DNA from: Acidimicrobiia bacterium
Lineage (GTDB): Bacteria > Actinomycetota > Acidimicrobiia > Acidimicrobiales > JACDCH01
Length of the DNA: 44,890 nt
Reading direction: 5' to 3'
NCBI GenBank assembly: GCA_013694495.1
Contig: JACDCH010000546.1
Location: 1 to 44,890 of the forward strand
This document shows, one piece after another, positions 9,054 to 38,248 of the stretch. Every line of letters starts with the position of its first letter. Within the stretch, counting starts at the first letter, position 1. The notes beneath the pieces are model-generated. The model had not been told where the DNA came from. It saw nothing but the letters and a program-made list of their open reading frames with translations, and did not search any database. Both the position numbers and the translations under genes were made by a program.

Positions 9054-9059
9054 GTCCGG

Positions 9060-11321: not shown

Positions 11322-11340
11322 CGCAGCAAGGTATCGGCCC

Positions 11341-11374
11341 CCTGTGACCGGCTTCCGGCTCACCCTGTCACAGG
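11341..11374. promoter_or_regulatory. 8-bp inverted repeat in the divergent promoter region between the two helicase genes
   Basis: CCTGTGAC (11341-11348) and GTCACAGG (11367-11374), within the 110-bp spacer between starts 11321 (-) and 11432 (+). Confidence 0.3.
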
Positions 11375-11431
11375 CCTCACGTAGGGTGACCACGGCGTCG
11401 AGCGAGTGCCGGCGGTGAACGGAAGGACACG

Positions 11432-17966: not shown

Positions 17967-17988
17967 TGATGAGTGCGGAGGGGGCGCC

Positions 17989-21635: not shown

Positions 21636-21669
21636 GGCAGCTCACCGCACGCTGGCTGGAGGGCTGGCA

Positions 21670-22191: not shown

Positions 22192-23354
22192 GGGTGCGCG
22201 TACTCGATCCCAGCGCGCTCGCAAGCCCCGGTGCACGGCGGATACGTCTGTATCTTCGACTCAACGGCTGGGCGCAGGAGACGACCGACCAGGGCGGCCC
22301 CGACGTCTGGGGCCGTCAGGCAGAAGGCGATGTCTACGAGGTCATCGCACCATCTCAGACGGCACGGGACTTCACGTCCCGGGTTTCGGAGCTGCTGCAC
22401 ACGCTGTCGGTCGTTGAGGACCGATCGGAGTCCGACGTCCTCCGTGACTTGCTCACCGTCACGTTCGACGTGCAGTACCTCCGTACCGGGCACGAGGGAC
22501 CTCCCGGAACAGCGCCGCTCCGCGACGCCGCCGATGCAGTCGCGGCAGCGCACAATCTGCTTGCGTCCGCGACCGCTGCGTTGGAAGAACCTCGCCTGGT
22601 GCAGCCGAGCCGACGGCCGGCCAAGACCACCGACTTCATGCGGAAGGTTCTTGCAGGGCCGACATCGGTCGGCAGTTTCGTGATCTCTACTTGGGTGCCC
22701 ATTCCACCCCGGCTGTCGCCGGAGGAGGACCAAGTCCTCTTCGACGACCCGAATGAGCCGTTCGAGCGCCAGGCAACGAGGCATCTGAGTCGTGCGCTCG
22801 CCGCAGCGCAGCAGGCCAGCGACGAGGCGCTGTCCTCGGACGCGGGGCTCGATGCCTTCCTCGCTGGTGAACAGGACGGCCTCAGCGCCAATCTCTGCGA
22901 GGCACTGGTGGCACTGGCGGGCGAACAGGAGGTGCCGCTGGGGATCACACTGGCTTGGGCCCTCGACCGCCCGATGCAGCACCTGCCATCCGAGTTCAGT
23001 TTCCCGACTGAGTCGATCTCAGTGCTGCGCGAGGCGGCACGCGAACTGCGCCAACGGCTACCCGAAGAGGTAGTTCGGGTGCGAGGAAATGTCGTACGCC
23101 TCCACCGTGACGCCGTTTCCGGCGCGGGTGACGTCACCATCGCCGGCATCGTGTCGGGTGACGATCTGGGCAAGCTTCGCCGAATCTCCGCATCTCTGGC
23201 GGAGGAGGACTACGAGCAAGCAATCGAGGCGCACCAGCAGTTCTCCGACGTAGAGATCGTCGGCGAGCTGTACCAACGGGGCACCCGGACGCACCTTCGG
23301 GATGCCCGAGGCTTCGCGGTCCATCCCGCCGCGGACGAGCATCCAGGCTCGTAG
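22188..23354 (+). CDS. 388-aa hypothetical protein, no recognisable family
   Basis: ATGA overlap with the preceding gene. Good G/C third-position bias. No P-loop, TM segment or catalytic motif found by eye. Confidence 0.65.
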   Translation: MRVRVLDPSALASPGARRIRLYLRLNGWAQETTDQGGPDVWGRQAEGDVYEVIAPSQTARDFTSRVSELLHTLSVVEDRSESDVLRDLLTVTFDVQYLRTGHEGPPGTAPLRDAADAVAAAHNLLASATAALEEPRLVQPSRRPAKTTDFMRKVLAGPTSVGSFVISTWVPIPPRLSPEEDQVLFDDPNEPFERQATRHLSRALAAAQQASDEALSSDAGLDAFLAGEQDGLSANLCEALVALAGEQEVPLGITLAWALDRPMQHLPSEFSFPTESISVLREAARELRQRLPEEVVRVRGNVVRLHRDAVSGAGDVTIAGIVSGDDLGKLRRISASLAEEDYEQAIEAHQQFSDVEIVGELYQRGTRTHLRDARGFAVHPAADEHPGS

Positions 23355-23483
23355 CCGCACAAGTTCGACGATGGTTGCGACCCTCTCCTGGCTCGACGTC
23401 TCGGCTGGGCACCAGCGCCGGGTGCGCGACCTCATCCGGCTCTTCGAGGAACTGGGGACGCGGACCCTTCCGGAACTCGACGA

Positions 23484-26400
23484 TCACCGCGCGCCGATTG
23501 AGCGGCCGAGGGAACGACCCCTCGTTGGCTCGATCACATCTCGCACGACAGCCGCGACCTGGTCGTGGCGATACCGGGCAAGAAGCTCCCTCGGACGGGA
23601 ACCGATCAGCTCGGCGATCGTGGTGGCGTGCTCCGGGACCACCTCGGCGGACTCGTCGAGGTAGAGACGGATGCTCTCGGCGGCTCGGTCCCAGCAGAGT
23701 CGCTCACGCTGAGCAGACGGTCGTGTTCCGAGGAGCTCGATGATGGCCAGAGGTGGGTCGGCGACGGCCTCGACGGCGAGAGTCAGCCGGCGAGAGGCCA
23801 AGGCCTGGTTCACCAGCTTCCTCTCGGCGAACTGTTCGGCGTGGTCGGCAGCGAACGCTTCGTGCTCGTGCTGCACCCCTTCGAGGCGCCCTACGCGCTG
23901 ATCGGCATGTGTGATCGCCTCGTCGATAGATGCGAGCGGCCTCAGGGCGGCGCGGCGCCGGCTGGGGCGCCAGGCGGCATGGGCCTCCGTCATTCGAGCG
24001 CGCCGGCCAGCCAGCATGGAGAGTCCTCGCCGGGCCTCTGTGAGTTGGTCCGCAACGGATGGCGGCTGCTTGCCGAGCACCGCGTCTAGCTCCCTGGCTC
24101 GCTCTCGCAGCTCCCGCAGCGTTTGACGTTGCGCGAGATGGGCGGCTTGGACAGCGAGTGGGTCGATCTCCGACGCGACGATCTGGTTTCCGCGGCGCGC
24201 GAGCGCCTCCGCGATGGGGCCAAGTCCGGTCTCGGGCACCTCCACGGCGTGGTCGCCAGTCTCGTCGTCGATCTCCCGGTCGCCCTCCACGATGTACAGA
24301 CTGGTTCGCTCGGCAGCTCGGGTGATGGCGACGTAGCCCTCTTCGAACCGGGAGACGTCGGTCGGGTGGTACCTGGCGCGATCGAGCGTCGCTCCTTGCA
24401 CGCCGTGCGTGGTTCGGGCGTAGGCGTGCTCGATGTGGCCAGCATCGAGGTACTCGGCGGGGATGGTGATCGGGCCCTCGTTCATGAACTCGACGACGAT
24501 CTCGCGTCGGCCGACCTTGATGGCGGCGACCCACCCGGTGCTCCCGTTCTTCACGAACTCCGACCGACCGCTTGCGTGGAGGGCGCGGTCGTTGCGGCGG
24601 GCGACGACCTCGTCACCAACCATGAACTCGCGGCCGTGGGCAATGAGGGGCTCGCCCATGAGCACCCCTTCGGCCTTGAGCAGCGTCCGGGCTCGGGTGT
24701 TGAGCGCTCGGCGGGCGGCGTTGGTGCCGGTGAGCATCGGCGCCGCAGAACCAGCGAGGCGGTCGGCCCACCAGTCCTGCACGAGGGCGTCGTACGTCTC
24801 GCGGGCAGTGGGCTGCCGGACGATCTTGCCGGCCAGGTCGTAGCGGTCGAGGGCCTCGTCGATGCGGCCCTCCCTGTAGTCGTCGATGGCCGCGCGCTCG
24901 ATCGGATCGATCTGGCGACGGTTGCCGACGAGCCGGACGAGCTCGGATCCCTTGCGAGCGGCCAGGGCCTTGAAGACGCCACCGGTGTCGACCGAGGCGT
25001 GCTGATCGGGGTCTCCGATCAGCTTGATGCAGCCGCCGACAGCATCGACATGGGAGGCGAGGCGAGCGAGGTCACGGGTACCCACCATCGATGCCTCGTC
25101 AAGCAGGAGGACGGTGCCGGATGCAAAGCGGTAGCCCCGCTGCTCAACGTCGATCAGCAAGCTGGCAATCGTTTGCGCCGACCGCCCCGTGTGGTGTCGG
25201 AAGCCGACGGCTGACTCCAGCTCTGCGGCGGCCGTGGCGCTGACCGCGCACCCGGCGACCGAGGTGCCCGACAAGGCGAAGGCATCGACGCAGGCGGAGG
25301 CGGCGTAGGTCTTGCCCGACCCCGGGCGGCCGACAATCGGTTGAATCGCCTCGGACGATGAGCAGACGGCGCGCACCATCGTCACCTGCTCGTCGGTGAG
25401 ATCGGGCCGCTGGGTCAGGACGAGGTCGATCGCCAAGTCCTTGGCGGCGAGGCCGGGGGCTCGGCGTTGCTCGGCCCACTGCAGGAGACGGGTTTCGATC
25501 TCGACGAGCTCTGGGGTGCTGAAGACCGCGGTACCGCCGGTGAGGATGCGGCGGTTGTCGAGCCCGATGACGACCTGGGAGTTGACTCCGGAGGTGGGGC
25601 CGGCGAGGAGCACAACCCGGTCGGAGGCGATGAACCGATCGGCGAGGCGTTCGACCTCCTCGGCGGGGGCTGCGGACCCGAGCTCGGCGGCGAGGCGCTG
25701 GACGACATCTCGGCGGGTAAAGGTCGAGGCTCGCTCGGTCAGCCCGTGCGCTCCGGCGAGGTGTTCGAAGGTGCGCTCGATGGCGCCGGATCGCTGCTGC
25801 ACGACGTGCGCCCGGTCGAAGCACGCCTCGATCGCGCGCTCGTCGAAGCCGAGGGCGGCGGCCCGTTCCCGCCAGGTGTTGGCCAGGGCGTCCGGGTCGA
25901 CGCTTCGGTCCTTCGCGTTCCGGGTGGCGAGGGTGGCGGCCTGGCGGGCCCGCGCGGAGGTGTAACCGGACTCGGCGAGCAGCTCCTCGATCTCGTCGCG
26001 GCGCTGGCTGAACTCGTCGATCACCCGCTGCGGGACGCCGTCGATGTCGGCGAGGCCGTGGACGATCGGTCCCCACTCGATGCCGAGCCGCTCGGTCAGC
26101 AAGTGGCGAAGGTGGGCTTGGTAGAGGTAGCCGCCGGAGAGGGCGTGGTGGAACAGGAGTCGGCCCTCGAGCGTGCGCCAGGCGTCGGCGACGGTGAGCG
26201 TGAGGTTGGCGACGACGACGTGAGTGTGCAGCAGGGGGTCGCCGGCCCGGCTGCTGCGGTGGTCGAAGGCAGCGGCGACGAGTCCGGCGGTCTGGATGCG
26301 CTCGCCCTTGGACCGGGCCATGGTCGCCTGGGCCTCGTAGTACCTGACGACCTCGTCGACGGCTTCGCGGTGGGCCTGGCGGATGGCGGCCCGCCGCTCG

Positions 26401-26918
26401 GGGTCGGCCAGCGCCCACAGGATGCTGACGCTCTTGGGTGGTCGGAGGGTGAGGTCGAAGCCGGGCCGGCGCTTCGACGGCTTGTGCGCCGTGGCGTAGG
26501 CGTTGACCTGTGCGCGCTGGACGCGCCACCCGATGCGCCGGGTCGTGTCCGACCGGGCCTTCTCACCCTCGAGGGCGCCGGTGGCGAGGAGGCGGCGGGT
26601 GAAGCGGGTGGAGACGTCTAGCTGGGCGGCGGCCTCCTTGACGGTGAGCCAGGCCCCTTCGGGCGCCTCGGAGACGGTCGGCGCCTTGGCCCGCGGGGCA
26701 GCTACCAGCTGCTCGGCCGTGAACGGGTGCTTGCCCTCGAGGAGCGCCCGGAAGTGGTCGGGGTCGACCTCGCCTTGCAGCCCCATCTCCTCGGCCAGCG
26801 AACCGACCCAGCGCCCGGGCGCCTCGCCGCGTCCGAGGTAGTAGGCCTCGGCCGACAGGGCGATCTCGCCGACGTAGTACTCGGCGCCGCCAGGCCGGAT
26901 TCGACCGATGTTCAGCAC
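23484..26918 (-). CDS. MOBF-family conjugative relaxase (TrwC/TraA type) with C-terminal RecD-like helicase
   Basis: Start re-called at GTG 26918 (VLNIGRIRPGGAEYYVGEIA) within ORF 23484..26966. Relaxase His-triad region: FDHRSSRAGDPLLHTHVVVAN. Helicase P-loop: GRPGSGKTYAASA. Also LLLDEASMV. Confidence 0.9.
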   Translation of the reverse strand: MLNIGRIRPGGAEYYVGEIALSAEAYYLGRGEAPGRWVGSLAEEMGLQGEVDPDHFRALLEGKHPFTAEQLVAAPRAKAPTVSEAPEGAWLTVKEAAAQLDVSTRFTRRLLATGALEGEKARSDTTRRIGWRVQRAQVNAYATAHKPSKRRPGFDLTLRPPKSVSILWALADPERRAAIRQAHREAVDEVVRYYEAQATMARSKGERIQTAGLVAAAFDHRSSRAGDPLLHTHVVVANLTLTVADAWRTLEGRLLFHHALSGGYLYQAHLRHLLTERLGIEWGPIVHGLADIDGVPQRVIDEFSQRRDEIEELLAESGYTSARARQAATLATRNAKDRSVDPDALANTWRERAAALGFDERAIEACFDRAHVVQQRSGAIERTFEHLAGAHGLTERASTFTRRDVVQRLAAELGSAAPAEEVERLADRFIASDRVVLLAGPTSGVNSQVVIGLDNRRILTGGTAVFSTPELVEIETRLLQWAEQRRAPGLAAKDLAIDLVLTQRPDLTDEQVTMVRAVCSSSEAIQPIVGRPGSGKTYAASACVDAFALSGTSVAGCAVSATAAAELESAVGFRHHTGRSAQTIASLLIDVEQRGYRFASGTVLLLDEASMVGTRDLARLASHVDAVGGCIKLIGDPDQHASVDTGGVFKALAARKGSELVRLVGNRRQIDPIERAAIDDYREGRIDEALDRYDLAGKIVRQPTARETYDALVQDWWADRLAGSAAPMLTGTNAARRALNTRARTLLKAEGVLMGEPLIAHGREFMVGDEVVARRNDRALHASGRSEFVKNGSTGWVAAIKVGRREIVVEFMNEGPITIPAEYLDAGHIEHAYARTTHGVQGATLDRARYHPTDVSRFEEGYVAITRAAERTSLYIVEGDREIDDETGDHAVEVPETGLGPIAEALARRGNQIVASEIDPLAVQAAHLAQRQTLRELRERARELDAVLGKQPPSVADQLTEARRGLSMLAGRRARMTEAHAAWRPSRRRAALRPLASIDEAITHADQRVGRLEGVQHEHEAFAADHAEQFAERKLVNQALASRRLTLAVEAVADPPLAIIELLGTRPSAQRERLCWDRAAESIRLYLDESAEVVPEHATTIAELIGSRPRELLARYRHDQVAAVVRDVIEPTRGRSLGRSIGAR

Positions 26919-26981
26919 GGGACGCCCCCAGGATCCCGCGGGGTCCGCCGCAGGCGGAACCTGCAAGTCTTTGAAGGCTTG

Positions 26982-27058
26982 ACGTGAGTGGGTCGCGTGG
27001 TGCGTGAGTGAGTCGAAGAGGACGGGTGCGGGCGACGCGGTGGTGAAGGCGTGAGGGC
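26982..27058. repeat. GTGAG-containing motifs upstream of the relaxase gene, inverted relative to the 27426-27612 array
   Basis: ACGTGAGTGG at 26982-26991 is the exact reverse complement of CCACTCACGT at 27520-27529. Also GCGTGAGTGAGTC at 27002-27014 and GCGTGAGGG at 27050-27058. Confidence 0.6.
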
Positions 27059-27107
27059 GTCGCGCAGTGGTCGGCGCGCGACGGCTCGAGAGGGTGACTG
27101 GCTGAGG

Positions 27108-27383
27108 TCAGGCATTGCTGGCCGGACGGTGCAGCTCGGTGACGGTGGCGGGCCGGGCGACGAGCTCGTCGAGTGCCCACCTCGGGATGACGATGCGCCT
27201 GACGTGCAGCCGCAGGGCATAGAGCTGCCCCTGGTCAATCATGTTGCGGACGGTCCCGGGCGAGATCTTGAGCCGGTCGGCGACCTCGGCGACGGTGTAG
27301 ACGATCGGCGCCTCAGCCGCCGCTCTGCGGCGGGGCTGGGCGTCCGGGACGGGCTTCAGCGGCCCGCAGCGGCGTCGTTCCAC
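27108..27383 (-). CDS. excisionase-family HTH DNA-binding protein (91 aa)
   Basis: GTG 27383 is preceded by GAAGGAGGA, within ORF 27108..27590. YTVAEVADRLKISPGTVRNMIDQGQLYALRL is an Xis/MerR-type HTH. Confidence 0.65.
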   Translation of the reverse strand: MERRRCGPLKPVPDAQPRRRAAAEAPIVYTVAEVADRLKISPGTVRNMIDQGQLYALRLHVRRIVIPRWALDELVARPATVTELHRPASNA

Positions 27384-27425
27384 GGGTCCTCCTTCGGGTG
27401 GCAGACGACCACCGTGCGGGATGGC

Positions 27426-27612
27426 ACTCACCCGAGCGCTCACGTTTGGGCTCACCCTCGCGAGATTTCTCAGAATTTCTAGGGAGTGAGCCCCTCCCCA
27501 CTCACGCGCGCTCACGTTTCCACTCACGTTCTCCGGGATTCCGAGGGGTGAGCCCGACTTGGGCTCACGCTCACTCACGTATTGGCTCACCCGCGCTCAC
27601 GTTTGGTCTCAC
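27426..27612. repeat. dense field of (G/A)CTCAC(G) direct repeats, including three copies of GCGCTCACGTTT
   Basis: About 13 same-strand CTCAC hexamers plus 2 inverted GTGAGC in 187 bp. GCGCTCACGTTTGGGCTCAC at 27436-27455, GCGCTCACGTTTCCACTCAC at 27508-27527 and GCGCTCACGTTTGGTCTCAC at 27593-27612. The field lies in the divergent spacer between 27383 (-) and 27710 (+). Confidence 0.8.
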
Positions 27613-28387: not shown

Positions 28388-29656
28388 TCAGGAAGAGGAA
28401 TCCCGATGATCGGGCCCCCTGATGACCCGGTGCCGGACGATGTCGAGGGTGGCCAGCTCCTGCTCAACTGGATAGCCCCGATCGAGAACCGACGCAGCGA
28501 ACCACCCAATCAGCGGATCATCGGCGAGCGCGCGCAGGCCGACCATCGCAGGCCCGTCAGGATCAAACGGCGGCCGGGGTGGGTGAGGCCAGGCACCGAC
28601 GTCGATGACCTCCGCAGCCGGCGCGGCTTGGAGCACTCGGCGGGCGATGCGCACGCCTCCCAGGTCGGCGTCGACGATCGCGACGACTCGCGTGCCTGTC
28701 GACGCCAGCAGCTCGAGGAGGCACGCTGCGTCGTCGCCGAACTGGCCGGCGGTGTACACGACCGGCAACGCCGGATGGCGCGCGCAGACGACCTCGGCCG
28801 GTTGCAGGTTCTCGATCACGACGACCGTGCACTCCGTGGTTGAGATGCCGAGGTGCGGCTGGTCGAGCCGGAGGGCAACCGGGCCTCGGATCGGTGCGAG
28901 GTCGACCGAACCGTCCGTGGTCGTCACGACGATCGGCCCGCCGAGGCCGATGCGGTCGCCTCGTCGGAGGCCGAGCTGCTCGAGCACGGCGGCGGGGACG
29001 TTCGCCGCTGTGAGGACGGCTGCGACGTCATGTGCCTTGGTCCCATCGAAGTGCGCCTGCGCAAACGCGCGTGGACCGGCATGATCGATGCCCGCCAACA
29101 GATCGCCGGCCGCCGCAGTGATCACCGCAATGGCCACGGGCGACCTGGCGCTTCGCAGCGCCGAGGCGACCTCGGGGAAGTTGGCGGCGAGTGCCGTGGC
29201 GAGTGACTCCCGCTCGGCGTCGCGCTGCTGCTCCGACTCGATGGTGCGGGCGCGCGCCGTCGACACAGCGACGGCAGCCTCCTCGGTGGGTTGCCACCAG
29301 CGAGGGCCACCGAGGATGCCGCGGCTGTCGACGCCGCAGGCCAAATGGACCACACGGCCGCGCACAAGGGACAACGCGACCTCGAAGGCCTCGTCGCCGT
29401 AGCGGCCGACGACCGTCGACCACCGCCGTCGTCCGGCGCCGAGCGCAAAGAGCCGGTCGGCCTCGACAACTGGGCCTGCCGGATGGTTCGGGTCGTGCAC
29501 CAGCACGACCTCGTTGGTCTTTCGACGCTGCCGACGATCTCTGACTTCGACGAGCTCCCCGTCGCGTTCGACGACCTCGACCAAGGGGACGACGCGACAC
29601 CCGAGCGGAACGCCACCCACCAGGGCGGATGCGCCGTTGGGATCCCAGTGCCTCAC
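28388..29656 (-). CDS. jetD: JetD/MksG-like Toprim nuclease subunit
   Basis: C-terminal Toprim-like layout: TVVVIENLQPAE ... VVYTAGQFGDDAA ... VVAIVDADLGGVRIARRVL. GTGA overlap with the upstream SMC-like gene. Confidence 0.75.
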   Translation of the reverse strand: MRHWDPNGASALVGGVPLGCRVVPLVEVVERDGELVEVRDRRQRRKTNEVVLVHDPNHPAGPVVEADRLFALGAGRRRWSTVVGRYGDEAFEVALSLVRGRVVHLACGVDSRGILGGPRWWQPTEEAAVAVSTARARTIESEQQRDAERESLATALAANFPEVASALRSARSPVAIAVITAAAGDLLAGIDHAGPRAFAQAHFDGTKAHDVAAVLTAANVPAAVLEQLGLRRGDRIGLGGPIVVTTTDGSVDLAPIRGPVALRLDQPHLGISTTECTVVVIENLQPAEVVCARHPALPVVYTAGQFGDDAACLLELLASTGTRVVAIVDADLGGVRIARRVLQAAPAAEVIDVGAWPHPPRPPFDPDGPAMVGLRALADDPLIGWFAASVLDRGYPVEQELATLDIVRHRVIRGPDHRDSSS

Positions 29657-32600
29657 AGCAGACGACCGGACTCCACCGCCGCGCGCGTCAGCTCAACTCG
29701 GCGGCCGTCAGGGTCGAAGCCCCAAACACGCGTCGGACGGCAGAGCGGCGACGCATCCGAGAGCCGCTCGAACCATAGGAGGAGGCGGGCGGCGCCGAGG
29801 GCGGCGACCTCCTCAAGGACCTTGTCCTGACAGGCAGCGATCACGGTGACGCCGTGGATGTCGGCGACGTGCGCGAAGGCCGACAACACCTGGCGGAGGT
29901 GCTCGCGGCCAAAGTCATTGCCGGCCTCATCGACGATGAGAACTCGACCGGCGGGGTCTTGGGCGGCGAGCAGCGCGGCGAGGACCAGGTGCGTGCGGTG
30001 CTGCTTCTGCATGGCCGAGTTGGCCTGTCGCGTGTATGGCAGCCACTTGGCACCCTGACCGCGGCGCCATTCCGGGGTGACCTCCCAAACCCAGAGGTCG
30101 GTCGGCAGCTCCGGCCGAAGCGAGCGCCAACCGAGCTGCGCGCCGTAACCACCGGCAGCGGCATCGAGTTCGGCGTAGCGCGCGCTGACGTGACCGAGTG
30201 CGGCTTCGATCTGCTGCTCGACCATGTCGCGGTGCCGATCGAGCAGGTCGCCCTGCGTGCCGCACTCCTTGCGGGCGGCACCGATGAGCTCGTCCCACCG
30301 CTCCCGTTCGGCTTCGACGTCCTCGCGAAAGGTGGCGTCGTGGTCGCCCTGTTCGTCGAGCCAGTCGACGAGCGGCTGGGCGACTGTGTCGAACCTGCGG
30401 ACCTCGTTGGTGGAAGGCACGTCGTCGTCGAGCCCACGCCGGGCGCGGATGACCCCTGCGATCGCTGAGGTCGGTGCGCCGAACCCGGAATTCGAATCGA
30501 TGCCGACACGCTCGAGCGCGATGCTGAGCTGTTCGGCGGCCCGCTTCCGGAGCGTGTCCTCCTGGCGGTCGTCGCTCGCGAGCGCGACCCCCGCGGCCTC
30601 GTCGGTGTCGGCCCAAGCACTGCGCCACCCATCGGCGTCGAGGCGCGCGATCGAGGCCCTGGTCGTGTCCATCTCGCGTGCAATGCGCTCCACCTCGTCT
30701 TGAGCGACCCCGAGATCACCCTCGAGACGGTCTCGGGCCTGCGCTGAGGTGTCGTACTGCACTCGAGCGTCGACCAGCTCCGTGTTTGCCATGCGTCGGT
30801 CCGCGTCCGCCTCGGCCAGCGCCCGCCTTCCCGTTGCAAGCTCCCGGGCACGCTCGGACTCCTGCCTGCTCAGGATCTCGAGCTCTGCGGCGGAGCGAAG
30901 CCGCTCGGCGGCGTCGATCGCCAGCTCGTGGGCTTGGAACGCTCGTTCGTGCTTCCCAAGCGTCTCGGCCTGCGCGTGTTCGACCTGTTCCAGCTCGGCG
31001 CGCGCTCGGTCGATTGCGGCGTCTCGGCCGCACAACTCGTGCTCGAACCCGCCGGCCACGACAACGCCAGCGGCGGCGTCGACGTAGGGCACCTCCGACC
31101 GCCCGAGGAGGGTGCGCAGGAACCGGGCGGTTCCGGCAGGTGCCTCAGTCACACCGTCGGGTCGTTGCTCCGTCGAGTCGGGCTCGACGATGACGAGGAC
31201 CGTGCCGGGCGGAGCGGAGGCGATGGCTCGATCGCGATGCTCGACAGGGATGACGAACGCGCCTCGCCACGGGGCGAGCAGCGGCTCCCACAGGGGACGT
31301 GCTGCCTCGTCGAGCACGATGCCGTCGATGAGCGACGTCGCGTTGACCTGCGCCGAGTCGAGCGCGGCGTGCGCTTGGGGGTCGGCCTCGCCGTGTTTCA
31401 TGATCGCCGCGAGGGTTGACTGCGCGCGATGGACATAGGTCTCGGCAGCACCAAGCGCGCGGATCGCTAGATCGAGCGCGTCCGCTGCGTCGGTCGCTCG
31501 AGACTCCGCATCTTCGAGGGTGACCCCGGCTGGGGCGGCGATCGCCTTCGTCGTGAGCGATGTGATCCGCTCCGCCAGCTGGTCGAGTTGGACGCCGCGT
31601 CGGACGACGTCCTCGTTTGCAGCCGTGTACCGCTGCTCGGCCTCCTCGTGAGCGCGCTGCGCCGATTCGACCAACCCTTCGAGCGTCGGGGCGTCGGGGA
31701 GGTCCGCCAGGCGAGCTGCGATGTCGCGGACAGCGGTACTGGCGGCGTTCTGGCTGGACGACAGGTCGAGGATGTGCGCGTCGAGCCGCTCCTGCTCCGA
31801 CACGGCGTCGAGGAGCTTGCGGGCGATGCGGAGCCGCCAGAGCCGCTTGCCTTCGGCGATGGCGTCCCGCGCGCTGTCGCGAGCGTCGATCTCCCCGAGG
31901 GTGGCCGCCCACTCCCGCTCGCGGCGTTCATGCTCGTCGATGCGGGTGGCGAGCCGCTGCTGCGCGTCGGCGAGCTTCGACCGCAGCTCTCGCTCGCCGT
32001 CGATGAGGTGCTCCAGCCCGAGGAGCACGATCAGCTCACTCCCGATGCGTGACGGGCTCAGCCGGGCCTGGAGCTGCATCAGTGAAGTGTCGGTGTCTCG
32101 GTTGCCCCGGCTGGTGACGTAGGCAAGGCATCGTCCGGTCCCGCCGTAGAGCTGCTCCACGAAGGAGGTCGGGCCGATCTGGTGTTCGCGGCCAAGTTCG
32201 TTCCACATCGTGGCCGCCTGGTCGCGCTCGGCGACGAGGTGGACACCGGGCGCCCACCGGGCGGTGAGCCGGGGCGTGTCGTCGGAGGAGATCCGCACCC
32301 AGACGGTCAGCTCGTCGTAGTTCCCGTCGGCCGTGACGTGGGCGAAGACGCCGGCGACATAGCCGACCCGAGCCGGGTCGTAGAGGCCGGCGGCGTCGCC
32401 AGAGAGGTCGGGGTCGAAGAGCAGGCCGAGCGCGTCGGCGCCGCCGGTGGTCGCCACCCGCCATTCGGGGTCGCCGAGCAGAAGCGACACTGAGGCCAGG
32501 AAGGTCGTCTTGCCACTCCCGTTGGAGTCCCGGTCGGGACCGGTGCCTGACACGGCAACCAGCGCCGAGGGCACGAGCGGCACCGGGTGGTGGGTGAGCC

Positions 32601-32688
32601 GCCCGAGTTCGATGGTCTGCACGGCAATCAGCTGGCGGCGACCAACGATGCCAGCGGCGGGCGCGCCGAACAGGGTGGGCTCATTCAT
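29653..32688 (-). CDS. jetC: JetC/MksB-like SMC-family ABC ATPase
   Basis: N-terminal P-loop SNGSGKTTFLASVSLLLGDPEW. About 600 aa of Ala/Glu/Arg-rich coiled coil. C-terminal Walker B RVLIVDEAGNDFG. Confidence 0.85.
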   Translation of the reverse strand: MNEPTLFGAPAAGIVGRRQLIAVQTIELGRLTHHPVPLVPSALVAVSGTGPDRDSNGSGKTTFLASVSLLLGDPEWRVATTGGADALGLLFDPDLSGDAAGLYDPARVGYVAGVFAHVTADGNYDELTVWVRISSDDTPRLTARWAPGVHLVAERDQAATMWNELGREHQIGPTSFVEQLYGGTGRCLAYVTSRGNRDTDTSLMQLQARLSPSRIGSELIVLLGLEHLIDGERELRSKLADAQQRLATRIDEHERREREWAATLGEIDARDSARDAIAEGKRLWRLRIARKLLDAVSEQERLDAHILDLSSSQNAASTAVRDIAARLADLPDAPTLEGLVESAQRAHEEAEQRYTAANEDVVRRGVQLDQLAERITSLTTKAIAAPAGVTLEDAESRATDAADALDLAIRALGAAETYVHRAQSTLAAIMKHGEADPQAHAALDSAQVNATSLIDGIVLDEAARPLWEPLLAPWRGAFVIPVEHRDRAIASAPPGTVLVIVEPDSTEQRPDGVTEAPAGTARFLRTLLGRSEVPYVDAAAGVVVAGGFEHELCGRDAAIDRARAELEQVEHAQAETLGKHERAFQAHELAIDAAERLRSAAELEILSRQESERARELATGRRALAEADADRRMANTELVDARVQYDTSAQARDRLEGDLGVAQDEVERIAREMDTTRASIARLDADGWRSAWADTDEAAGVALASDDRQEDTLRKRAAEQLSIALERVGIDSNSGFGAPTSAIAGVIRARRGLDDDVPSTNEVRRFDTVAQPLVDWLDEQGDHDATFREDVEAERERWDELIGAARKECGTQGDLLDRHRDMVEQQIEAALGHVSARYAELDAAAGGYGAQLGWRSLRPELPTDLWVWEVTPEWRRGQGAKWLPYTRQANSAMQKQHRTHLVLAALLAAQDPAGRVLIVDEAGNDFGREHLRQVLSAFAHVADIHGVTVIAACQDKVLEEVAALGAARLLLWFERLSDASPLCRPTRVWGFDPDGRRVELTRAAVESGRLL

Positions 32689-33308
32689 GCGTGGGCTGCT
32701 CCTCGGCGACGGTGGACGGCCCGAGCCAGGTTCGAGCCGGGTGCGGCGGCCACGACCATGTTCTCCCAGATCGTGCGGCTGCGTTCCTCCGTGAGCCGGC
32801 GGAACTGCGGACCGGGCAGAAGCTTGGAGCGGAGCCCGGTTCGCAGGACGCCGGCGTCGCGCAGTCGGCGCAGCGAGGCGCGGACGGCCCGTTCGTTGAG
32901 GCGACGGTCTCGGTTGGCGGTGAGCGCGCCGACATCGGGTGCAGGGAGGTTGTCGCTGGACCAGTCGGTGGTGTCCGTGGTGCCGCGTGCTGCCGGGATG
33001 GCGACGGCGTGAAGTAAGACCAGGCTCAGCACGGCGGCGTCAATCGGTGCCAGGACACCCGCGCCCTCGTCGACCAGCCGGTCGGCGATGGTGTCGTCGT
33101 ACCCGGAGATCCAACTGTCATCGCCGACTCGGAGGAGCGCGCGCCCGGCTCCCTGCAACGACTGGCCGACGAGGTCGCGAAGGGCGGGATCGGCGAGCGC
33201 AGCGAACTGCGCTTGCGGAACCGGCTCCGCCGACTCCTCGACGGCAACGACGGCGTTCAGGACCGCACCGCGGTCTCGCGACGACAGGGTGGCGAGAGTG
33301 GCGGTCAT
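32685..33308 (-). CDS. 207-aa winged-helix-like protein (JetB/KITE-like candidate, second of two)
   Basis: Start re-called at MTATLATL (ATG 33308) in ORF 32685..33593; the upstream 95 codons are Arg/Pro junk read out of frame from the preceding gene. ATGA overlaps at both ends. VRASLRRLRDAGVLRTG looks like a wHTH recognition helix plus wing. Confidence 0.55.
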   Translation of the reverse strand: MTATLATLSSRDRGAVLNAVVAVEESAEPVPQAQFAALADPALRDLVGQSLQGAGRALLRVGDDSWISGYDDTIADRLVDEGAGVLAPIDAAVLSLVLLHAVAIPAARGTTDTTDWSSDNLPAPDVGALTANRDRRLNERAVRASLRRLRDAGVLRTGLRSKLLPGPQFRRLTEERSRTIWENMVVAAAPGSNLARAVHRRRGAAHA

Positions 33309-33808
33309 GCCAGCGACTGGCTCGGTTCGGGGAGGGCGTCGAGGTTGCGGCGAAACGCTTCGAGATCGGCGTCGGCCCAGCCAGCGGTGAGGGGACCGAG
33401 CCGGAGGACGTCGTTGTCGTCGATGTCGAGGATTTGAGCCTGGGAGAGGATGTGGCGAACGGCGCCCACGATGTGTCGGCTGGCGGCGACGTTGATGCGC
33501 ATGGCGCGCGCCGCGGCCATGACGTCGTCGATCGTGAATGGGCGGCCCGGGTAGGGGTGGCGGTCGCGGTCGTCCCAGGCGAGGCCGACGCACAGCCCGA
33601 GAGCGACAAGGGCCGAATCCGGGAGTGTCGTCGGGAACACCTCGAGATCGGCGGCGGATGGCGCTTCGGCGTGGCGGGCGAGGACGACCTGGCGGCCGGC
33701 TCGCTGCGGCGCGCGCCCGACGTTGGCAGCGGAACGTTCAAGCGCCACCAGGTCGGCGATGGGCCCGGCGCCGAGGGCGCGCAGGCGGGCGAGCTCGATG
33801 GCACTCAT
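33305..33808 (-). CDS. 167-aa winged-helix-like protein (JetB/KITE-like candidate, first of two)
   Basis: Start re-called at MSAIELARL (ATG 33808) in ORF 33305..34582. ATGA overlaps with the upstream and downstream genes. Confidence 0.55.
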   Translation of the reverse strand: MSAIELARLRALGAGPIADLVALERSAANVGRAPQRAGRQVVLARHAEAPSAADLEVFPTTLPDSALVALGLCVGLAWDDRDRHPYPGRPFTIDDVMAAARAMRINVAASRHIVGAVRHILSQAQILDIDDNDVLRLGPLTAGWADADLEAFRRNLDALPEPSQSLA

Positions 33809-35109
33809 CGGGGCGCGCGCTCCTCGCTCTCGGCGGCGGGTTGGACGATCGTCGGTCTCTCCACGGTGAGGCGAGCGTCGGACGTCCAGCTGGTGTGGGC
33901 GTCGGTGTCGACGACCAGGGTGTCGGCTAAGTGCAGGCGGTAGACCGAGTGCTCGTCGACGTCGAGGCTGGCGAGCTCGACGACCACCTGGAGCGCCGCG
34001 GGCCACGGCGTGGCACGGAGGTGCGCCGACAACTCGATCGAAGCCTCGCCCTGCAGGAGCAGCTCGGCGGTGTGCTGGCGTTGTCGCCGGATGACGTCGA
34101 TCCGCTCGTCGAGACCGTCGAGCGGATCGATCGCCGGGTCGCCCGCCAAGGAGCCGACGGGGGGCCGCCGCGGTTGGCGATGATTCGGGCGGTACGCCCG
34201 CAGCGCTGCGACGACGTCGGCGGGCGACACCTGCGGCCGAGGCGGGTCCCACACGACACCGGCGAACACCGCGGCAAGTGCCTCGACCGTGCCGGTGGTG
34301 GCGAGCCGGGCGTAGTCGGCCGGGTCGAGCAGCGAGAAGTCGCGGGTCGACGCACCCTCGTCGACGATCCGTTCGAGAAGCCGCTGGGTCGCCACCAGGT
34401 ACGACTGGGCAGCGGTGAGCAACGCCGTGGCTGCGACCCGCAGAGTGGGATGGTGCTTGGTGACGACGTCGACGACCCGCTCCACCTGGGCGAGCATCCG
34501 GTCGCCGTCGTGCTGGGCGCGCTCCGCCACCAGCTCGGCGAGAGTGGCCGTGTCGGTGAGACGGTTGACAGCGGCGGTCCACATCTCGACGTAGCCGCGC
34601 TGTTCGACAAGGGCGTCGGCGACCTTGCCCGCGTCGTGCCGACCATCCTCGATCGCGTCAGCCGTGGCGCCGAGGAGCTGGAGCAGTTCCTCGATGCCTC
34701 CGTCGGTCAGCCCCTTCCGGAAGAAGAGGCTGCCTGCGACGGCGTCGGTGCTGACCACGTAGCGCTGCTGGTGGACCTTGTCCCGATAGGGCAGGAGCAT
34801 CGCCAACTCGACGAAGGTGTCGATCCGCTGTTCGAGCTCAGCCCGGTCGAGGTCGTCGAGGCGCAGCGCGCGCTCGATGATCTGAGCGCGGGCGAGTCCC
34901 TGTTCGATGTCGCCCTGGCCGAACGCGCCGATGACGGCCTCGGCGTAACGCAGCATCGACGGGTCGTCGACGACGGCGCCGCCGTGCGACGCGACGGGAG
35001 CAGCCATGGCACCGAGCCGGCGCGCCGCGCCGCTGCGCCGATGGCGCTTCCCGACGAAGTCGAACTGTTCGTCCTCCACGGCCGTGACCCTACGCAGGGA
35101 GTGTGACAT
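33805..35109 (-). CDS. 434-aa first gene of the Wadjet-like operon (JetA/MksF kleisin-like by position)
   Basis: Start re-called at MSHSLRRV (ATG 35109) in ORF 33805..35286. The assignment rests on operon position and size only; I cannot see a diagnostic motif. Confidence 0.5.
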   Translation of the reverse strand: MSHSLRRVTAVEDEQFDFVGKRHRRSGAARRLGAMAAPVASHGGAVVDDPSMLRYAEAVIGAFGQGDIEQGLARAQIIERALRLDDLDRAELEQRIDTFVELAMLLPYRDKVHQQRYVVSTDAVAGSLFFRKGLTDGGIEELLQLLGATADAIEDGRHDAGKVADALVEQRGYVEMWTAAVNRLTDTATLAELVAERAQHDGDRMLAQVERVVDVVTKHHPTLRVAATALLTAAQSYLVATQRLLERIVDEGASTRDFSLLDPADYARLATTGTVEALAAVFAGVVWDPPRPQVSPADVVAALRAYRPNHRQPRRPPVGSLAGDPAIDPLDGLDERIDVIRRQRQHTAELLLQGEASIELSAHLRATPWPAALQVVVELASLDVDEHSVYRLHLADTLVVDTDAHTSWTSDARLTVERPTIVQPAAESEERAPR

Positions 35110-35170: not shown

Positions 35171-36052
35171 CTACGACAGCGCGCCGAGGGCGGCCTCGAC
35201 CTCGTGGCGCAACCGCTCGTCACAGGTCGCCCACCTTCGTTCGTCGTCCTCGAGGTCGGCGAGGAACCCGAAGCGGTGGCGCACACACGCCTCCCATGCC
35301 ACGAGGTCCACGGGACGGGTCAGCACCCCGATCGAATCGGCCTCGAAGTCGCGCTCCCGGCGCTCGTGGAGAACGTCGGCGGGGTCGAGGGGCCGGACGC
35401 CGCGTCCGTCATCCACGACATCACCCCACACCTTCAGCACCCAGAGCCGACGGACGAGGGCCTCGTCGATGGCTCGACCGGCGAAGTGGTTGAGGTCGTA
35501 CAGGTCTCGGCCCAGCGAGATCCGTCGATAGCGGGCCAGCTTCTCTGCGCACGCCTCAGCCTCGGCGACCACGGGCAGCACCGGGAGCTCGAATCCGTAG
35601 CTCTTGTGGATCGGAAGCGGCACGAACCCGAGTGGATCCGAAGGCAGGGCGAGCGGCCGACGGGCGAACTCGACGCTCGCTGCGATGTTGGGCGCGCCAA
35701 GGTCAGCGTGGCTGACCCGGAGATGCCAGTGCCGGCCGTCTCCACGATCGGAGTCGAGGTGGTACTCGAAGCCGCCGACCCGCGCACCGTCGATGATGCC
35801 GCAGGTCTCGAGCACGGTGTTCTCGTCGGGAGCCGCGAAGTCCAGGTCGGTGGAGAATCGGCCGTCGTTGCCCAGGCGGCACTTGCGCAGGCTGGTGCCG
35901 CCCTTGAACACCAGATGCCCTCCATCAAAGCAAGCGGCCTCGGCCAGCAGGAACAGCAGGTGGTCCTGGGCGACGTCGAGCAGCGCGGCGTCGTACGCGT
36001 CGGCGCGTCCGAGGGCGTGTCGAGAGACGAGCGCTTGCGTGAGTCCGGCCAT
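35171..36052 (-). CDS. abiEii: AbiEii/AbiGii-family nucleotidyltransferase toxin (DUF1814)
   Basis: LVFKGGTSLRKCRLGNDGRFSTDLDFA matches the GGTxL...R.S.DxD NTase motif of AbiEii. It follows an AbiEi-like gene after a 3-nt gap. Confidence 0.8.
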   Translation of the reverse strand: MAGLTQALVSRHALGRADAYDAALLDVAQDHLLFLLAEAACFDGGHLVFKGGTSLRKCRLGNDGRFSTDLDFAAPDENTVLETCGIIDGARVGGFEYHLDSDRGDGRHWHLRVSHADLGAPNIAASVEFARRPLALPSDPLGFVPLPIHKSYGFELPVLPVVAEAEACAEKLARYRRISLGRDLYDLNHFAGRAIDEALVRRLWVLKVWGDVVDDGRGVRPLDPADVLHERRERDFEADSIGVLTRPVDLVAWEACVRHRFGFLADLEDDERRWATCDERLRHEVEAALGALS

Positions 36053-36055
36053 CGG

Positions 36056-36937
36056 CTACGCCTTGCCCACGAGGCCCTGCAGCGGAGCGATCAGCCGATC
36101 GACGACGTAGTACTGAGGCACCCAGAGCGCTGGGGCGTCGTCACCACCACGATGCAGAGCCGGGTGTTCGAAGTGGACCTTAGGCATCGGCCCGCGTGCT
36201 GGTCGCCGATCGAACAGCTGGATGCCCCGCGGTGGATGGCCGGCGGCGTGGAGCAGGTAGGCGGCCCGCTGCCAGGTCGATGCCGACTGGCCGACCAGCA
36301 GGGTGGCCAGTCGATCGTCGTCGCAGTCGGCCGTCAGCTGTTCGAGGTGGGCAACGAGGTCCGCCCAGGGGCGGAACGACGCTGGGCGCGCGGCCAGCTG
36401 GACGATGAGGGCCTCAGGTCCGAAGGCCGGTAGTCCGCCGGCCCACGCGACGAGGTCTAGCTTGCGCCGCACCAGCAGGGCGGTGCTCGGACCCAGCTCC
36501 TTGGCTGCGGCCCTCGGCCACTTGATCCGCACTACCGATACGTGCTGGCGCAGCCCGTCGGGCAGCCGGCGCTCCCTTGGAAGCCAGACCGGGATCCGGC
36601 CGTCGGGGGCTCGGTCGAGGTAGCCGAGATGCCACGCTGCCGCGGCGCCCGCGAGCATGAGCTCCGCATCGGGGTCGCGAGCCCGCCAGGCGCGAATCGC
36701 AAGGTAGGGATCGGCCACGGCGTCCTGGCCGGGTGGGATGAATGCCCAGGTTCCCTGGATCGGCAGGCCCACGAGCCATCCAAGGCGGCGGAGCTCATCA
36801 ACGGTGGTGTCGACATCCCGGTCGCTGCCGACCTCCGCCAAGCGATCGCCGAGGTCCTCGCGCGTGACGACGGCCGGAAGATCTCGCGACAGTCCCGCAA
36901 CCAAGCCGGAGGCCCAGGTCGGAACGCGGCGGTCCAT
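36056..36937 (-). CDS. abiEi: AbiEi-like antitoxin / transcriptional regulator
   Basis: ORF 36056..37015. Codons upstream of MDRRVPTW are low in G/C at third positions, so ATG 36937 was taken as the start. N-terminal wHTH-like VTREDLGDRLAEVGSDRDVDTTVDELRRLGWLV. Positioned upstream of the NTase toxin. Confidence 0.65.
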   Translation of the reverse strand: MDRRVPTWASGLVAGLSRDLPAVVTREDLGDRLAEVGSDRDVDTTVDELRRLGWLVGLPIQGTWAFIPPGQDAVADPYLAIRAWRARDPDAELMLAGAAAAWHLGYLDRAPDGRIPVWLPRERRLPDGLRQHVSVVRIKWPRAAAKELGPSTALLVRRKLDLVAWAGGLPAFGPEALIVQLAARPASFRPWADLVAHLEQLTADCDDDRLATLLVGQSASTWQRAAYLLHAAGHPPRGIQLFDRRPARGPMPKVHFEHPALHRGGDDAPALWVPQYYVVDRLIAPLQGLVGKA

Positions 36938-37156
36938 CCCCGCCGAGCTCGTCGCCTGCCAACCCGTGGTTGAGTTCACAGCGGATACTCTACCCCCACA
37001 GTGCTGATTCCGCATCTATCCCAACCATTTAGTTAGAGACTGTGCGGATTTCGGTTGCTGGGAGCCGGCTTTCCGCATCGCTTACAACCAACTCAACACC
37101 GGCCATGCGGGGGTTCGGGTCAGCCACCGGGTTGCAGTCATCGGTGCCACCGATGC

Positions 37157-37209
37157 ATAAGCCGTAGTGGAGTCATAAGCACAGCGCTTATACTTGGCAT
37201 TGTGCTTAT
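37157..37209. promoter_or_regulatory. four copies of ATAAGC/GCTTAT (two direct, two inverted) in the AT-richer spacer between the divergent TA pairs
   Basis: ATAAGC at 37157-37162 and 37175-37180. GCTTAT at 37186-37191 and 37204-37209. The central pair forms ATAAGC-N5-GCTTAT. Confidence 0.4.
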
Positions 37210-37216
37210 CGAAGCG

Positions 37217-38248
37217 ATGCGCTGGCTCCGCGATGCCGGCGTCACGATTGAGCGGTTGGCCTCACAGCCGTCCGACCACGGTGGCGTCGTCGGACCTGAC
37301 GCGATCCTCCTCATTGCCGCTGGCGACGCGGAGGTGAGGTTCGCTGTCGAGGAGAAGCGGCGGGCGCCATACCCCAACGAGATTCCACGGCTCAGCGGAC
37401 ATCGAGAGGCGTTGAGCCAATCCGGCCAACCGCTGCTCGTCGTGCCCTTCGTGAGCGAGGCACTCGGACCTGTGCTCGGTGAGGCCGGTTGGTCGTGGGC
37501 TGATGAGTGCGGCAACTTCGACCTGCGCGCGCCCGGCCTGGTGCTTCGGCAACGACACACGACGACGACGCCGAGGCCCAAGCGGAAGAGCCTCCCCCAG
37601 GGCTCGGGCGGCCTTGCGATCATTCGCGCTCTGATCCGCTTCGGAGCAGGCGAGGAACAGGAAGCTGGCGCGACCGCCCTCGCTGCGCAAGCGAAGGTCT
37701 CTCAGCCCCGCGCCTCACAGGTGCTTCGCCAGCTGCACGAGCTGAAGCTCATCGACAACTCGGGACGCGGTCGGTTGCGGCCCAATCGCGAGGCGCTCCT
37801 CGATCGCTTCCTCGCGGAGTACCGGGGCCCCGGAGGCTCGGAGCAGTACCTCTACAGCCTGGACCCGCCCACTGACCTCGCTGTGCGCGCTACGAGCACC
37901 CGCACAGGCTCTCCTGCACGTCAGATCGTCGTTTCGGCCGACGTCGGACCAGATCTCATCCTGGCCTGGCGCCGTCCGACCACCGTCGTCCTTTACACCA
38001 CGCACGAGATCGACCCCGACGACCTCGGGCTCGTCGAGGCCCAGGGCAGTCACGACGCCAATGTCATCGTGCGGATCCCGGAGGACCGGTCGGTGTTCCC
38101 GGTTCCGGAGCTGGTGGCCGACGTACGGGGGGTGGGGGTCCCGTTGGCCGATCCGTCACAGATGATCTGGGACCTGCAGGATCTTGGGGGTGCCGACCGA
38201 CTCGAGGCTGCTGGCATGCTGCACGAATGGCTGCTGACGCGCCCCTGA
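37217..38248 (+). CDS. 343-aa wHTH protein, putative antitoxin/regulator of the downstream NTase
   Basis: Start taken at MRWLRDAG within ORF 37055..38248. Central wHTH-like ALAAQAKVSQPRASQVLRQLHELKLID. Overlaps the downstream gene by 22 nt. Confidence 0.5.
   Translation: MRWLRDAGVTIERLASQPSDHGGVVGPDAILLIAAGDAEVRFAVEEKRRAPYPNEIPRLSGHREALSQSGQPLLVVPFVSEALGPVLGEAGWSWADECGNFDLRAPGLVLRQRHTTTTPRPKRKSLPQGSGGLAIIRALIRFGAGEEQEAGATALAAQAKVSQPRASQVLRQLHELKLIDNSGRGRLRPNREALLDRFLAEYRGPGGSEQYLYSLDPPTDLAVRATSTRTGSPARQIVVSADVGPDLILAWRRPTTVVLYTTHEIDPDDLGLVEAQGSHDANVIVRIPEDRSVFPVPELVADVRGVGVPLADPSQMIWDLQDLGGADRLEAAGMLHEWLLTRP

Follow-up and report, generated by a model that had tools for sequence, protein, structure and literature searches.

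The described systems closest to the locus considered here are the Wadjet systems, above all Wadjet type II (JetABCD-II/EptABCD; PDB codes 9QE0 and 9QE1). In the type II system of Neobacillus vireti, presented in a preprint of 2025, the JetB protein (nvJetB) of 388 amino acid residues is a tandem KITE, with four winged helices in two diverged lobes. It stands in for a KITE dimer, and the proposed origin is a duplication followed by fusion and diversification. According to the same preprint, the SMC complexes of prokaryotes as a rule carry homodimers of KITE proteins while Smc5/6 contains a heterodimer, and the authors suggest that a tandem KITE could widen the sequence space for escape from anti-defence proteins directed at KITEs. 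The archaea, according to a study of SMC evolution, have multiple kite paralogs, which were assigned to different complexes. The locus presented here is a five-gene operon on contig JACDCH010000546.1 of an Acidimicrobiia bacterium (GCA_013694495.1). The whole contig, 44,890 nt in length with about 70% G+C, is called the window below. Two of the five genes encode small KITE-like proteins, B167 and C207. It is probable that the five genes together specify a divergent Wadjet-like SMC defence complex with a heterodimeric B-C KITE, which would cleave circular DNA.

Architecture of the Operon

All five genes lie on the minus strand. The first, A434 (33805..35109, ATG start), occupies the position of the kleisin (JetA/MukF) and belongs to an orphan family. 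It is followed by B167 (33305..33808, ATG start), a KITE paralog with two winged-helix-like units, and by C207 (32685..33308, ATG start), the second KITE paralog, which consists of two winged-helix domains and C-terminal helices. The fourth gene, D1011 (29653..32688, ATG start), encodes an SMC-like ABC ATPase with the apparent order head, arm, hinge-like domain, arm and head, and the last, E422 (28388..29656, GTG start), a JetD/MksG-like Toprim nuclease. The A/B, B/C, C/D and D/E junctions read ATGA, ATGA, ATGA and GTGA, every one of them a 4-nt start/stop overlap, and the operon is translationally coupled.

At 70% G+C, many spurious open reading frames (ORFs) are open in the DNA of the window. 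The third-position G+C follows the five proposed frames and shifts frame at every junction. This agrees with a first-pass annotation of the same DNA, made from the sequence alone, whose coordinates, lengths and 4-nt overlaps for the five minus-strand ORFs were all recovered. The motifs quoted there are also present: SNGSGKTT and VLIVDEAG in D1011, VVIENLQ and DADLGG in E422. The B167 sequence is identical to the protein H0W25_17960 of an Acidimicrobiia metagenome-assembled genome (MAG), where the annotation is only "hypothetical protein".

Structure and Relationship of the Two Small Proteins

Both small proteins have families of their own. The homologues of B167 form 43 clusters, nearly all of 165-183 residues, and those of C207 form 57 clusters, mostly of 198-225 residues. 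AlphaFold2 monomer models were built from the family alignments of B and C and compared with the PDB by Foldseek. The model of B167 is fair, with a predicted local distance difference test (pLDDT) score of 71, and that of C207 is confident, with a score of 89. Each consists of two successive helix-helix-helix-hairpin units, which are followed by C-terminal helices. The best structural match of B167 is JetB from P. aeruginosa (8dk1_E, E 1.1e-3, TM 0.52), and further neighbours are MukE (3rpu/3euh), JetB from E. coli (8as8_C, TM 0.51), ScpB and the tandem KITE nvJetB (9qe0_D). For C207 the best match is ScpB (6juv, E 3e-4), with MukE, JetB, Nse1 (7dg2_A) and MAGE-G1/NSE1 (5hvq) among the further neighbours. 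KITE proteins make up nearly all of the top of both lists, and the alignments, of about 150-230 columns, cover both winged helices. The orientation of the two domains relative to each other varies. Both models have two tandem winged-helix domains in the KITE arrangement, with modest statistics, and so the earlier description of both proteins as winged-helix-like is borne out.

The two families are also related to each other. When the B and C profiles were compared by hhalign, they aligned with a probability of 92.7% and an E value of 4e-7 over 136 collinear columns, B residues 21-162 with C residues 44-190, which placed the motif GR...LGW of B with GR...SGY of C and LRLGP with PGPQF. This comparison was run on cleaned alignments, after the contaminating C-terminus of B carried by one protein, P0096, had been removed from the C set; P0096 is a fused B-C gene with a mis-called start, hence the attached B C-terminus. 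The B profile also matches the C half of several fused proteins. The first-pass annotation saw no obvious similarity between the two proteins. This is true by eye, yet the profile comparison makes them homologous. Because the profiles align, the models are KITE-like and the cross-hits connect the two families, B and C are diverged KITE paralogs, each a complete two-domain KITE, and not halves of one KITE.

The paralogs have not diverged at the same rate. In the same loci, the identity to the window protein is mostly about 27-36% for B and about 33-50% for C. Thus B diverges faster than C, and its first winged helix is reduced. Such asymmetric divergence is as expected for subfunctionalised paralogs.

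At the level of sequence the two proteins stand apart from the known KITE families. Neither has a family in Pfam, NCBIfam or PADLOC, and when every member of the three alignments (A, B and C) was scanned against Pfam, along with the fused proteins, only generic winged helix-turn-helix (HTH) noise was returned. The B and C profiles gave no KITE match at sequence level among all PDB sequences. The hhalign comparison of both profiles with the single E. coli MukE sequence was not significant, the aligned part being confined to the recognition helix in the second of the winged helices. The JetB models (DUF4194 and DUF2398/TIGR02678) do not significantly recognise B, C or the fused B-C proteins.

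Conservation of the Operon and Fusion of the Two Genes

A set of 77 loci (L001-L077) was assembled, 74 from a scan with the C profile, with one genome per species, and 3 from look-ups of C homologues. Four fused loci (L078, L081, L082 and L083) were looked up in addition, which gives 81 related loci in total. All named taxa among them belong to the Actinomycetota. Named genera account for 41 of the 81 loci and include Streptomyces, Amycolatopsis, Actinomadura, Actinoallomurus, Nocardia, Lentzea, Kitasatospora, Micromonospora and Blastococcus; other loci come from MAGs of Acidimicrobiia, Solirubrobacterales and Nitriliruptoria. The gene order A-B-C-D was found by tblastn and hidden Markov model (HMM) searches wherever the contig permits. 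The flanking genes are not conserved among the relatives, which marks the five-gene block as a unit. A full HMMER scan of 1.84 billion representative proteins with the C profile gave 135 clusters at 50% identity, a small closed family, and no sequence bridge to DUF2398, DUF4194 or other KITE families.

How often B and C are separate in homologous operons was surveyed with HMMs of both domains, a fusion being counted when the two domains lie in one ORF. An open C frame upstream was dropped as a criterion of fusion since, at 70% G+C, chance alone keeps frames open. Each of the 77 loci has its B domain between A and C, upstream of C. Of these loci, 67 keep the two in separate ORFs, mostly with overlaps of 4 or 8 nt, and the other 10 have them in one ORF: L002, eight Streptomyces loci (L009-13, L015-16 and L039) and L077. 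In L002, from Amycolatopsis dongchuanensis, the fusion is read directly from the translation, and L077 is a frameshift-ridden MAG contig. The fused state is found in 13 loci, namely L002, L009-13, L015-16, L039, L078, L081, L082 and L083, and the fused relatives have lengths of 392-455 residues. In the C family, 62 representatives of full length were compared; B and C share one chain in about 14 of them, and 45-47 are stand-alone. Two of the fused loci have the canonical four-gene order A-BC-D-E, with 424/402/1042/430 residues in L078 and 429/392/1033/427 in L081; the layout of L082 and L083 is JetD_C-A-BC-D.

The history of the fusions was followed in neighbour-joining trees of the D protein, which are distance-based and midpoint-rooted, with 200 bootstraps and no outgroup. 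The fused loci fall into three clades. The first unites L078 and L081 (100%), with the split locus L075 as sister (100%). The second contains the Streptomyces-type loci (100%), and its sister consists of the split loci L024, L025 and L028 (99%). The third is L002 alone among split loci of Amycolatopsis and Nocardia. In none of the 200 bootstraps were the fused loci monophyletic. Three fusions suffice if the ancestor was split, while at least four events are needed if it was fused, so that the two-gene state is slightly favoured as ancestral in the family, an order judged without an outgroup. Since the split and fused states interconvert repeatedly, there is strong evidence of the Rosetta-stone kind that B and C function jointly as a unit.

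The opposite history would be a secondary split, in which an ancestral single tandem-KITE gene resembling type II JetB underwent fission and left B and C as its two lobes. The first-pass annotation remarked that the two lengths add up to about that of a long JetB, and the sum of 167 + 207 = 374 residues is indeed close to the 388 residues of the type II JetB of N. vireti. The models of type II JetD fit E422 best, and in L078 and L081, the most divergent members of the family, the pair is fused and the four genes stand in the canonical order. One B homologue gave a match to DUF2398 with an E value of 0.045, which is not significant. These points agree with fission. However, the surveyed loci L001-L077 are predominantly split, each of the three fused clades has a split sister lineage, the event count is lower for the split ancestor, and a sequence link to DUF2398 or TIGR02678 is not detectable. 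We regard the secondary split as unlikely. Under either history there would be two different KITE lobes per kleisin. The split JetB and the pair of paralogs between which the first-pass annotation left the choice are not true alternatives, because type II JetB itself is made of two KITE lobes. As a refinement, B and C each correspond to one lobe of type II JetB.

Some members of the family deviate in length or integrity. Four proteins with a C domain are far longer than about 400 residues: P0120 (684), P0128 (663), P0131 (506) and P0134 (693). In P0120, P0128 and P0131 there are about 90-270 residues between the B and C domains, and in P0134, found in the C-profile search only, residues 574-692 match C residues 86-200. 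Locus L003 (positions 7200-13900 of ENA contig_11402, 520 kb) is a close relative of the operon in which A, D and E appear broken into many short frames. This is either a pseudogenised, decaying copy or the result of long-read indel errors, and the same applies to L076 and L077.

Toprim Nuclease E422

Among the five window proteins, only E422 is recognised in scans against Pfam, NCBIfam and PADLOC. It scores 25.9 bits against Pfam DUF2399 (cut-off 23.4) over residues 276-343 and matches PADLOC JetD2 with an E value of 4.2e-7; JetD1 is matched as well. The Pfam and PADLOC matches span residues 274-347, and the NCBIfam match to TIGR02679 is weak. The Toprim core (residues 276-343; 28628..28831, minus strand) contains E282-N283 in VVIENLQ and D329-x-D331 in DADLGG (residues 329-334). 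Residues E282, N283, D329, D331 and G334 are invariant in the E family alignment of 14 members, and E282-N283 and D329-x-D331 are the predicted Toprim acidic residues of the protein. In the PDB, the E family profile matches MksG from C. glutamicum (8b7f, E 0.0056) as well as RNase M5 and JetD (7til). The earlier reading of E422 as a Toprim protein is confirmed by these matches to DUF2399, JetD2 and MksG/JetD.

The relatives carry the same signal. Pfam JetD_C is strong in the nuclease gene of L010 (470 residues, 2e-17; positions 6675-8087, upstream of A) and of L065 (486 residues, 1e-15; positions 13787-15247, downstream of D), and it is present in the precomputed Pfam annotation of the nuclease genes of L002, L082 and L083. 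Judged from these domain matches, the family is firmly tied to Wadjet-type nucleases, though the position of the nuclease gene varies. Streptomyces-type loci have it upstream of A, elsewhere it follows D, and L036 is also listed among the cases of such a shift. In L010 an additional gene for 455 residues (13782-15149), with no assigned function, follows D. In L001, from Actinomadura sp. 21ATH, D is followed by a protein of 1121 residues (12923-16288) that belongs to no Pfam family, and the neighbourhood yielded no JetD.

SMC-like ATPase D1011

The family alignment of D contains 29 sequences with 25-79% identity to D1011. The Walker A motif, SNGSGKTT (residues 55-62; 32503..32526, minus strand), has S55, N56 and K60 invariant in the 29 members, and in some D relatives it reads SNESGKT or SNESSKT. 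In the Walker B motif, VLIVDEA (residues 916-922; 29923..29943, minus strand), which extends to VLIVDEAG at residue 923, D920 and E921 are invariant. The layout was derived from the composition and the conservation profile. A conserved N-terminal head (residues 1-225) is followed by a first arm at about residues 230-440, poor in Pro and Gly and rich in helix formers. A central globular segment at about residues 445-570 (30979..31356, minus strand) is conserved and richer in Pro and Gly, and may be the hinge. The second helix-rich arm, at about residues 570-840, is interrupted at about residues 720-780, and a conserved C-terminal head extends over about residues 845-1011. This arrangement suggests that D1011 has the SMC layout.

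Comparison with known families is less informative. Against the SMC, JetC, LmuB and DndD models of Pfam, NCBIfam and PADLOC, D1011 gave nothing beyond coiled-coil-level noise; its JetC1 match is weak (E 0.037), with the Walker A and B motifs, two arms and the central globular segment present. Its membership of JetC is unproven by such weak similarity. In the PDB the D profile finds only coiled-coil proteins (tropomyosin, SMC arms) and the Walker B region of ABC ATPases, where it aligns to the Walker B/D-loop of FhuC. Among the 29 members, PADLOC models of LmuB match 12 (best 5.8e-15) and of mad8 match 16, while JetC2 and JetC3 match 4 each at about 1e-5, as scattered weak matches.

First Gene A434

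Homologues of A434, with 400-468 residues, lie immediately upstream of B in at least 49 loci. The protein has no family in Pfam, NCBIfam or PADLOC, and neither the JetA and MukF models in general nor the JetA kleisin models DUF3375 and DUF2397 match A434; the JetA and MukF models also miss 28 relatives. The A profile retrieves no JetA or MukF chain from the PDB, and its hhalign comparison with the single E. coli MukF sequence gave no significant match. A search of 5.8 billion proteins returned only close relatives, all of them without Pfam domains. The N-terminus of A resembles a winged HTH weakly (an IclR-type protein, 8eju, at E 1e-3; the ScpB winged helix at E 0.3).

Assignment to the Wadjet Systems

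The first-pass annotation called the operon Wadjet-like. The DUF2399 and JetD2 matches of E422, the JetD_C domains of the relatives and the MksG/JetD matches of the family profile uphold this, and E422 is a JetD/MksG-type Toprim nuclease encoded together with SMC genes. It was also considered earlier that the five-gene layout might be a Wadjet subtype already in the catalogues. This is not so, since the catalogue models recognise the nuclease only. In full-text searches of the literature, no paper was found on a fourth Wadjet type or on two KITE genes in one bacterial operon. The operon thus appears to represent a divergent, uncatalogued Wadjet-like family of actinobacteria that is not a member of types I-III, an assignment we favour with some confidence.

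Several results weigh against the picture of a Wadjet-like complex with a heterodimeric KITE. The Foldseek statistics are marginal, with E values of 1e-3 to 3e-4 and TM values of 0.25-0.52, and the pLDDT of the B model is 71. No JetA, JetB or JetC sequence model significantly recognises A, B, C or D. For A434, the kleisin role, which the first-pass annotation assigned by position only, is suggested by no more than its position, its size and the weak N-terminal winged HTH. The association of B and C as a heterodimer on the A434 product draws support that is indirect and not direct, from the in-frame B-C fusions in three clades and from translational coupling. Some D relatives match Lamassu LmuB better than the JetC models. 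A canonical LSGGQ is missing from D1011, which has ANSAMQK there, 30 residues before Walker B, and the motif at the signature position is [AT]-N-[STG]-A across the family; at the expected position of the H-loop the D family has an invariant QD. Because of these two changes the ATPase cycle of D may differ from the canonical one.

It could be argued from the same observations that the mechanism is not that of Wadjet, and that the system is another SMC/Rad50-type defence module, Lamassu- or MADS-like, which signals or degrades DNA with no extrusion of loops and has merely recruited a Toprim domain. The D members do match LmuB and mad8/mad3 more often than the JetC models, the signature motif and H-loop are non-canonical, and in some relatives (the Actinomadura locus L001) the JetD gene is replaced by the unrelated 1121-residue protein. 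Against this, the LmuB match of D1011 itself is weak and falls at residues 228-335, inside the first helix-rich arm, and all matches of D1011 are weak. A gene in the kleisin position, proteins of KITE fold, an ATPase of about 1000 residues with long arms and a JetD, in the order of jetABCD, are the signature of Wadjet. Lamassu is not known to have KITE subunits or a JetD. A mechanism of this kind is quite improbable.

Still less probable is that only one of the small proteins is structural and that the other, presumably B167, is a transcription regulator of the winged-helix type or an accessory factor. The sequence matches of B and C, which are only weak and generic for winged HTH proteins (PaaX, MarR, GntR), could be read in this way. 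B is shorter than usual KITEs and faster-evolving, and its model is of lower confidence. However, B stands between A and C in every one of the 77 loci, usually with an overlap of 4 or 8 nt with C, it has repeatedly been fused in frame to C and it is homologous to C across both domains. Its structural neighbours are foremost JetB and MukE, and not repressors.

Finally, that the two ORFs are an artefact, one gene cut by a frameshift error or a pseudogenising mutation, is excluded even for a contig from a MAG and with fused B-C versions elsewhere, since the ATGA junction is a clean start/stop overlap, third-position G+C shifts frame exactly there, and the identical split, with lengths kept, recurs in dozens of independent assemblies, including isolate genomes, which also disposes of the earlier concern that one ORF might have no conserved homologues.

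Comparison with Known SMC Complexes

It is important to compare the Wadjet-like operon with the systems that it resembles. With Wadjet type II it shares the order of a gene in the kleisin position, KITE, SMC-like ATPase and Toprim nuclease, and E422 fits best to type II JetD models (DUF2399, TIGR02679, PADLOC JetD2). In the window there would be, as in type II, two different KITE lobes per kleisin and four winged helices, and the fused relatives are similar in length to nvJetB. However, the lobes of the window are separate polypeptides from two genes, and the DUF2397, DUF2398 and TIGR02680 models do not recognise A, B, C or D. The D proteins of the family have about 1010-1080 residues, while the SMC genes of type II, as described, significantly exceed the type I genes in size. 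A tandem KITE, with four winged helices in one polypeptide, is absent from the window, where B and C are separate ATGA-overlapping genes; by domain order it is present in the 13 fused loci and in about 14 of the 62 representatives.

The likeness to Wadjet type I (E. coli GF4-3, P. aeruginosa JetABCD) and MksBEFG lies in the best structural matches of B167 (8dk1_E, 8as8_C), in the JetD_C nucleases of the relatives and in the match of the E profile to C. glutamicum MksG. The extrusion and cleavage of circular DNA known from type I is presumed for the window system. In type I a single JetB gene gives a homodimer, and DUF3375 and DUF4194 have no match in any of the five window proteins. The view that the Wadjet KITE is homodimeric, on which the first-pass annotation relied, holds for type I but is out of date for type II with its tandem KITE.

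In Smc5/6, the Nse1-Nse3-Nse4 module has one kleisin that carries two diverged KITE paralogs as a heterodimer, an arrangement that the window system may share, and the Nse1 and MAGE-G1/NSE1 structures (7dg2_A, 5hvq) are among the structural neighbours of C207. By analogy, the B/C pair may be a bacterial counterpart of Nse1/Nse3 of eukaryotic Smc5/6. The origin is nevertheless independent, B and C are nearest to each other, and no Pfam family, RING and MAGE included, is found in B or C. The window SMC is presumably a homodimer from a single gene, and a Toprim nuclease is attached. With MukBEF and Smc-ScpAB the operon has in common the architecture of SMC, kleisin and KITE, and MukE and ScpB are top structural matches of B167 and C207. 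These complexes differ in that a homodimeric KITE comes from one gene, there is no nuclease, the role is in chromosome organisation, and no sequence similarity to the window proteins exists.

Genomic Neighbourhood

An AbiEii toxin (293 residues) and AbiEi antitoxin (319 residues) pair lies 62 nt upstream of A434, within 35171-37015 on the minus strand. Beyond it is a gene for 397 residues (37055-38248, plus strand) with no Pfam family; in the close relatives L005 and L003 a homologue of this gene, in divergent orientation, adjoins A directly. For this reason the AbiE pair looks like an insertion between A434 and the 397-residue gene.

Elsewhere in the window, hallmarks of mobile elements lie within 1018-9053 and 23058-27590. 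They comprise two tyrosine integrases (1427-2575 and 7791-9053), a TrwC relaxase together with a RecD-like helicase (23484-26966), and genes of the HTH_17 excisionase-like kind at 1018-1407 and at 27108-27590. The operon is located on an integrative, mobilisable element or defence island, and with these integrases, excisionase-like genes and relaxase a system of the anti-plasmid type rides on a mobile element. A Multiubiquitin-domain gene (3979-4344), a ClpP-like SDH protease (6445-7437) and a subtilase gene are also found. A second defence-like cluster extends over 9060-22191 and looks like an island module of the restriction-modification type. It includes an SNF2 helicase (9060-11531, minus strand) and, all on the plus strand, an SNF2/helicase with a NOV_C domain (11390-15028), a DUF1156 and D12-type methyltransferase (14787-17966), a Swt1-like HEPN and DUF499 protein (18132-21635) and a DUF4365 protein (21583-22191). 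When E422, C207 and one JetD_C relative were compared by tblastn with 72,556 plasmids, the only match was a mislabelled, unannotated Nonomuraea chromosome, and no family member was found on the catalogued plasmids.

Proposed Mechanism

In the mechanism that we propose by analogy with Wadjet, D1011 would dimerise through its central hinge-like domain and form an SMC-type ATPase ring, which A434 would close as the kleisin by bridging the two D heads. B167 and C207 would pair as a heterodimer, next to each other on the middle of A434, in place of the JetB, MukE or ScpB homodimer. The pair would correspond to the tandem KITE that Wadjet type II has in a single chain, and it would contact DNA above the D heads. 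The ATPase would load on DNA and extrude loops, driven by ATP; on small circular DNA the motor would stall, and the Toprim dimer of E422 would cleave. Loop extrusion and plasmid restriction by the operon are thus predicted from the described systems. The asymmetric KITE pair would present different surfaces on the two sides of each motor unit, and this could widen the sequence space for escape from KITE-targeting anti-defence proteins.

A further proposal, which we put forward tentatively and hold to be somewhat short of even probability, is that the family keeps the KITE in a duplicated but not yet fused state, that its heterodimer is a true prokaryotic one, independent of Nse1/Nse3 in origin, and has been fused at least three times, and that the family forms a fourth Wadjet type absent from the present catalogues of defence systems. 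The duplicated, unfused state is the route to the tandem KITE postulated by the authors of the Wadjet type II structure.

Significance

In the papers found, prokaryotic SMC complexes have KITE homodimers or the tandem KITE of type II, and KITE heterodimers are reported only for Smc5/6. A family with separate KITE paralogs and natural fusions offers a view of a symmetric accessory dimer turning asymmetric. If the reading as an unfused KITE duplicate is true, each SMC motor unit would be intrinsically asymmetric. The separate genes make every KITE lobe individually mutable or deletable, and the model of duplication and then fusion for the tandem KITE is directly testable in the family. Because Pfam and PADLOC recognise the nuclease alone, surveys of defence systems in the Actinomycetota probably overlook the family. 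As an anti-plasmid system in Streptomyces, Amycolatopsis, Actinomadura and Nocardia, it would bear on the transformability of those genera.

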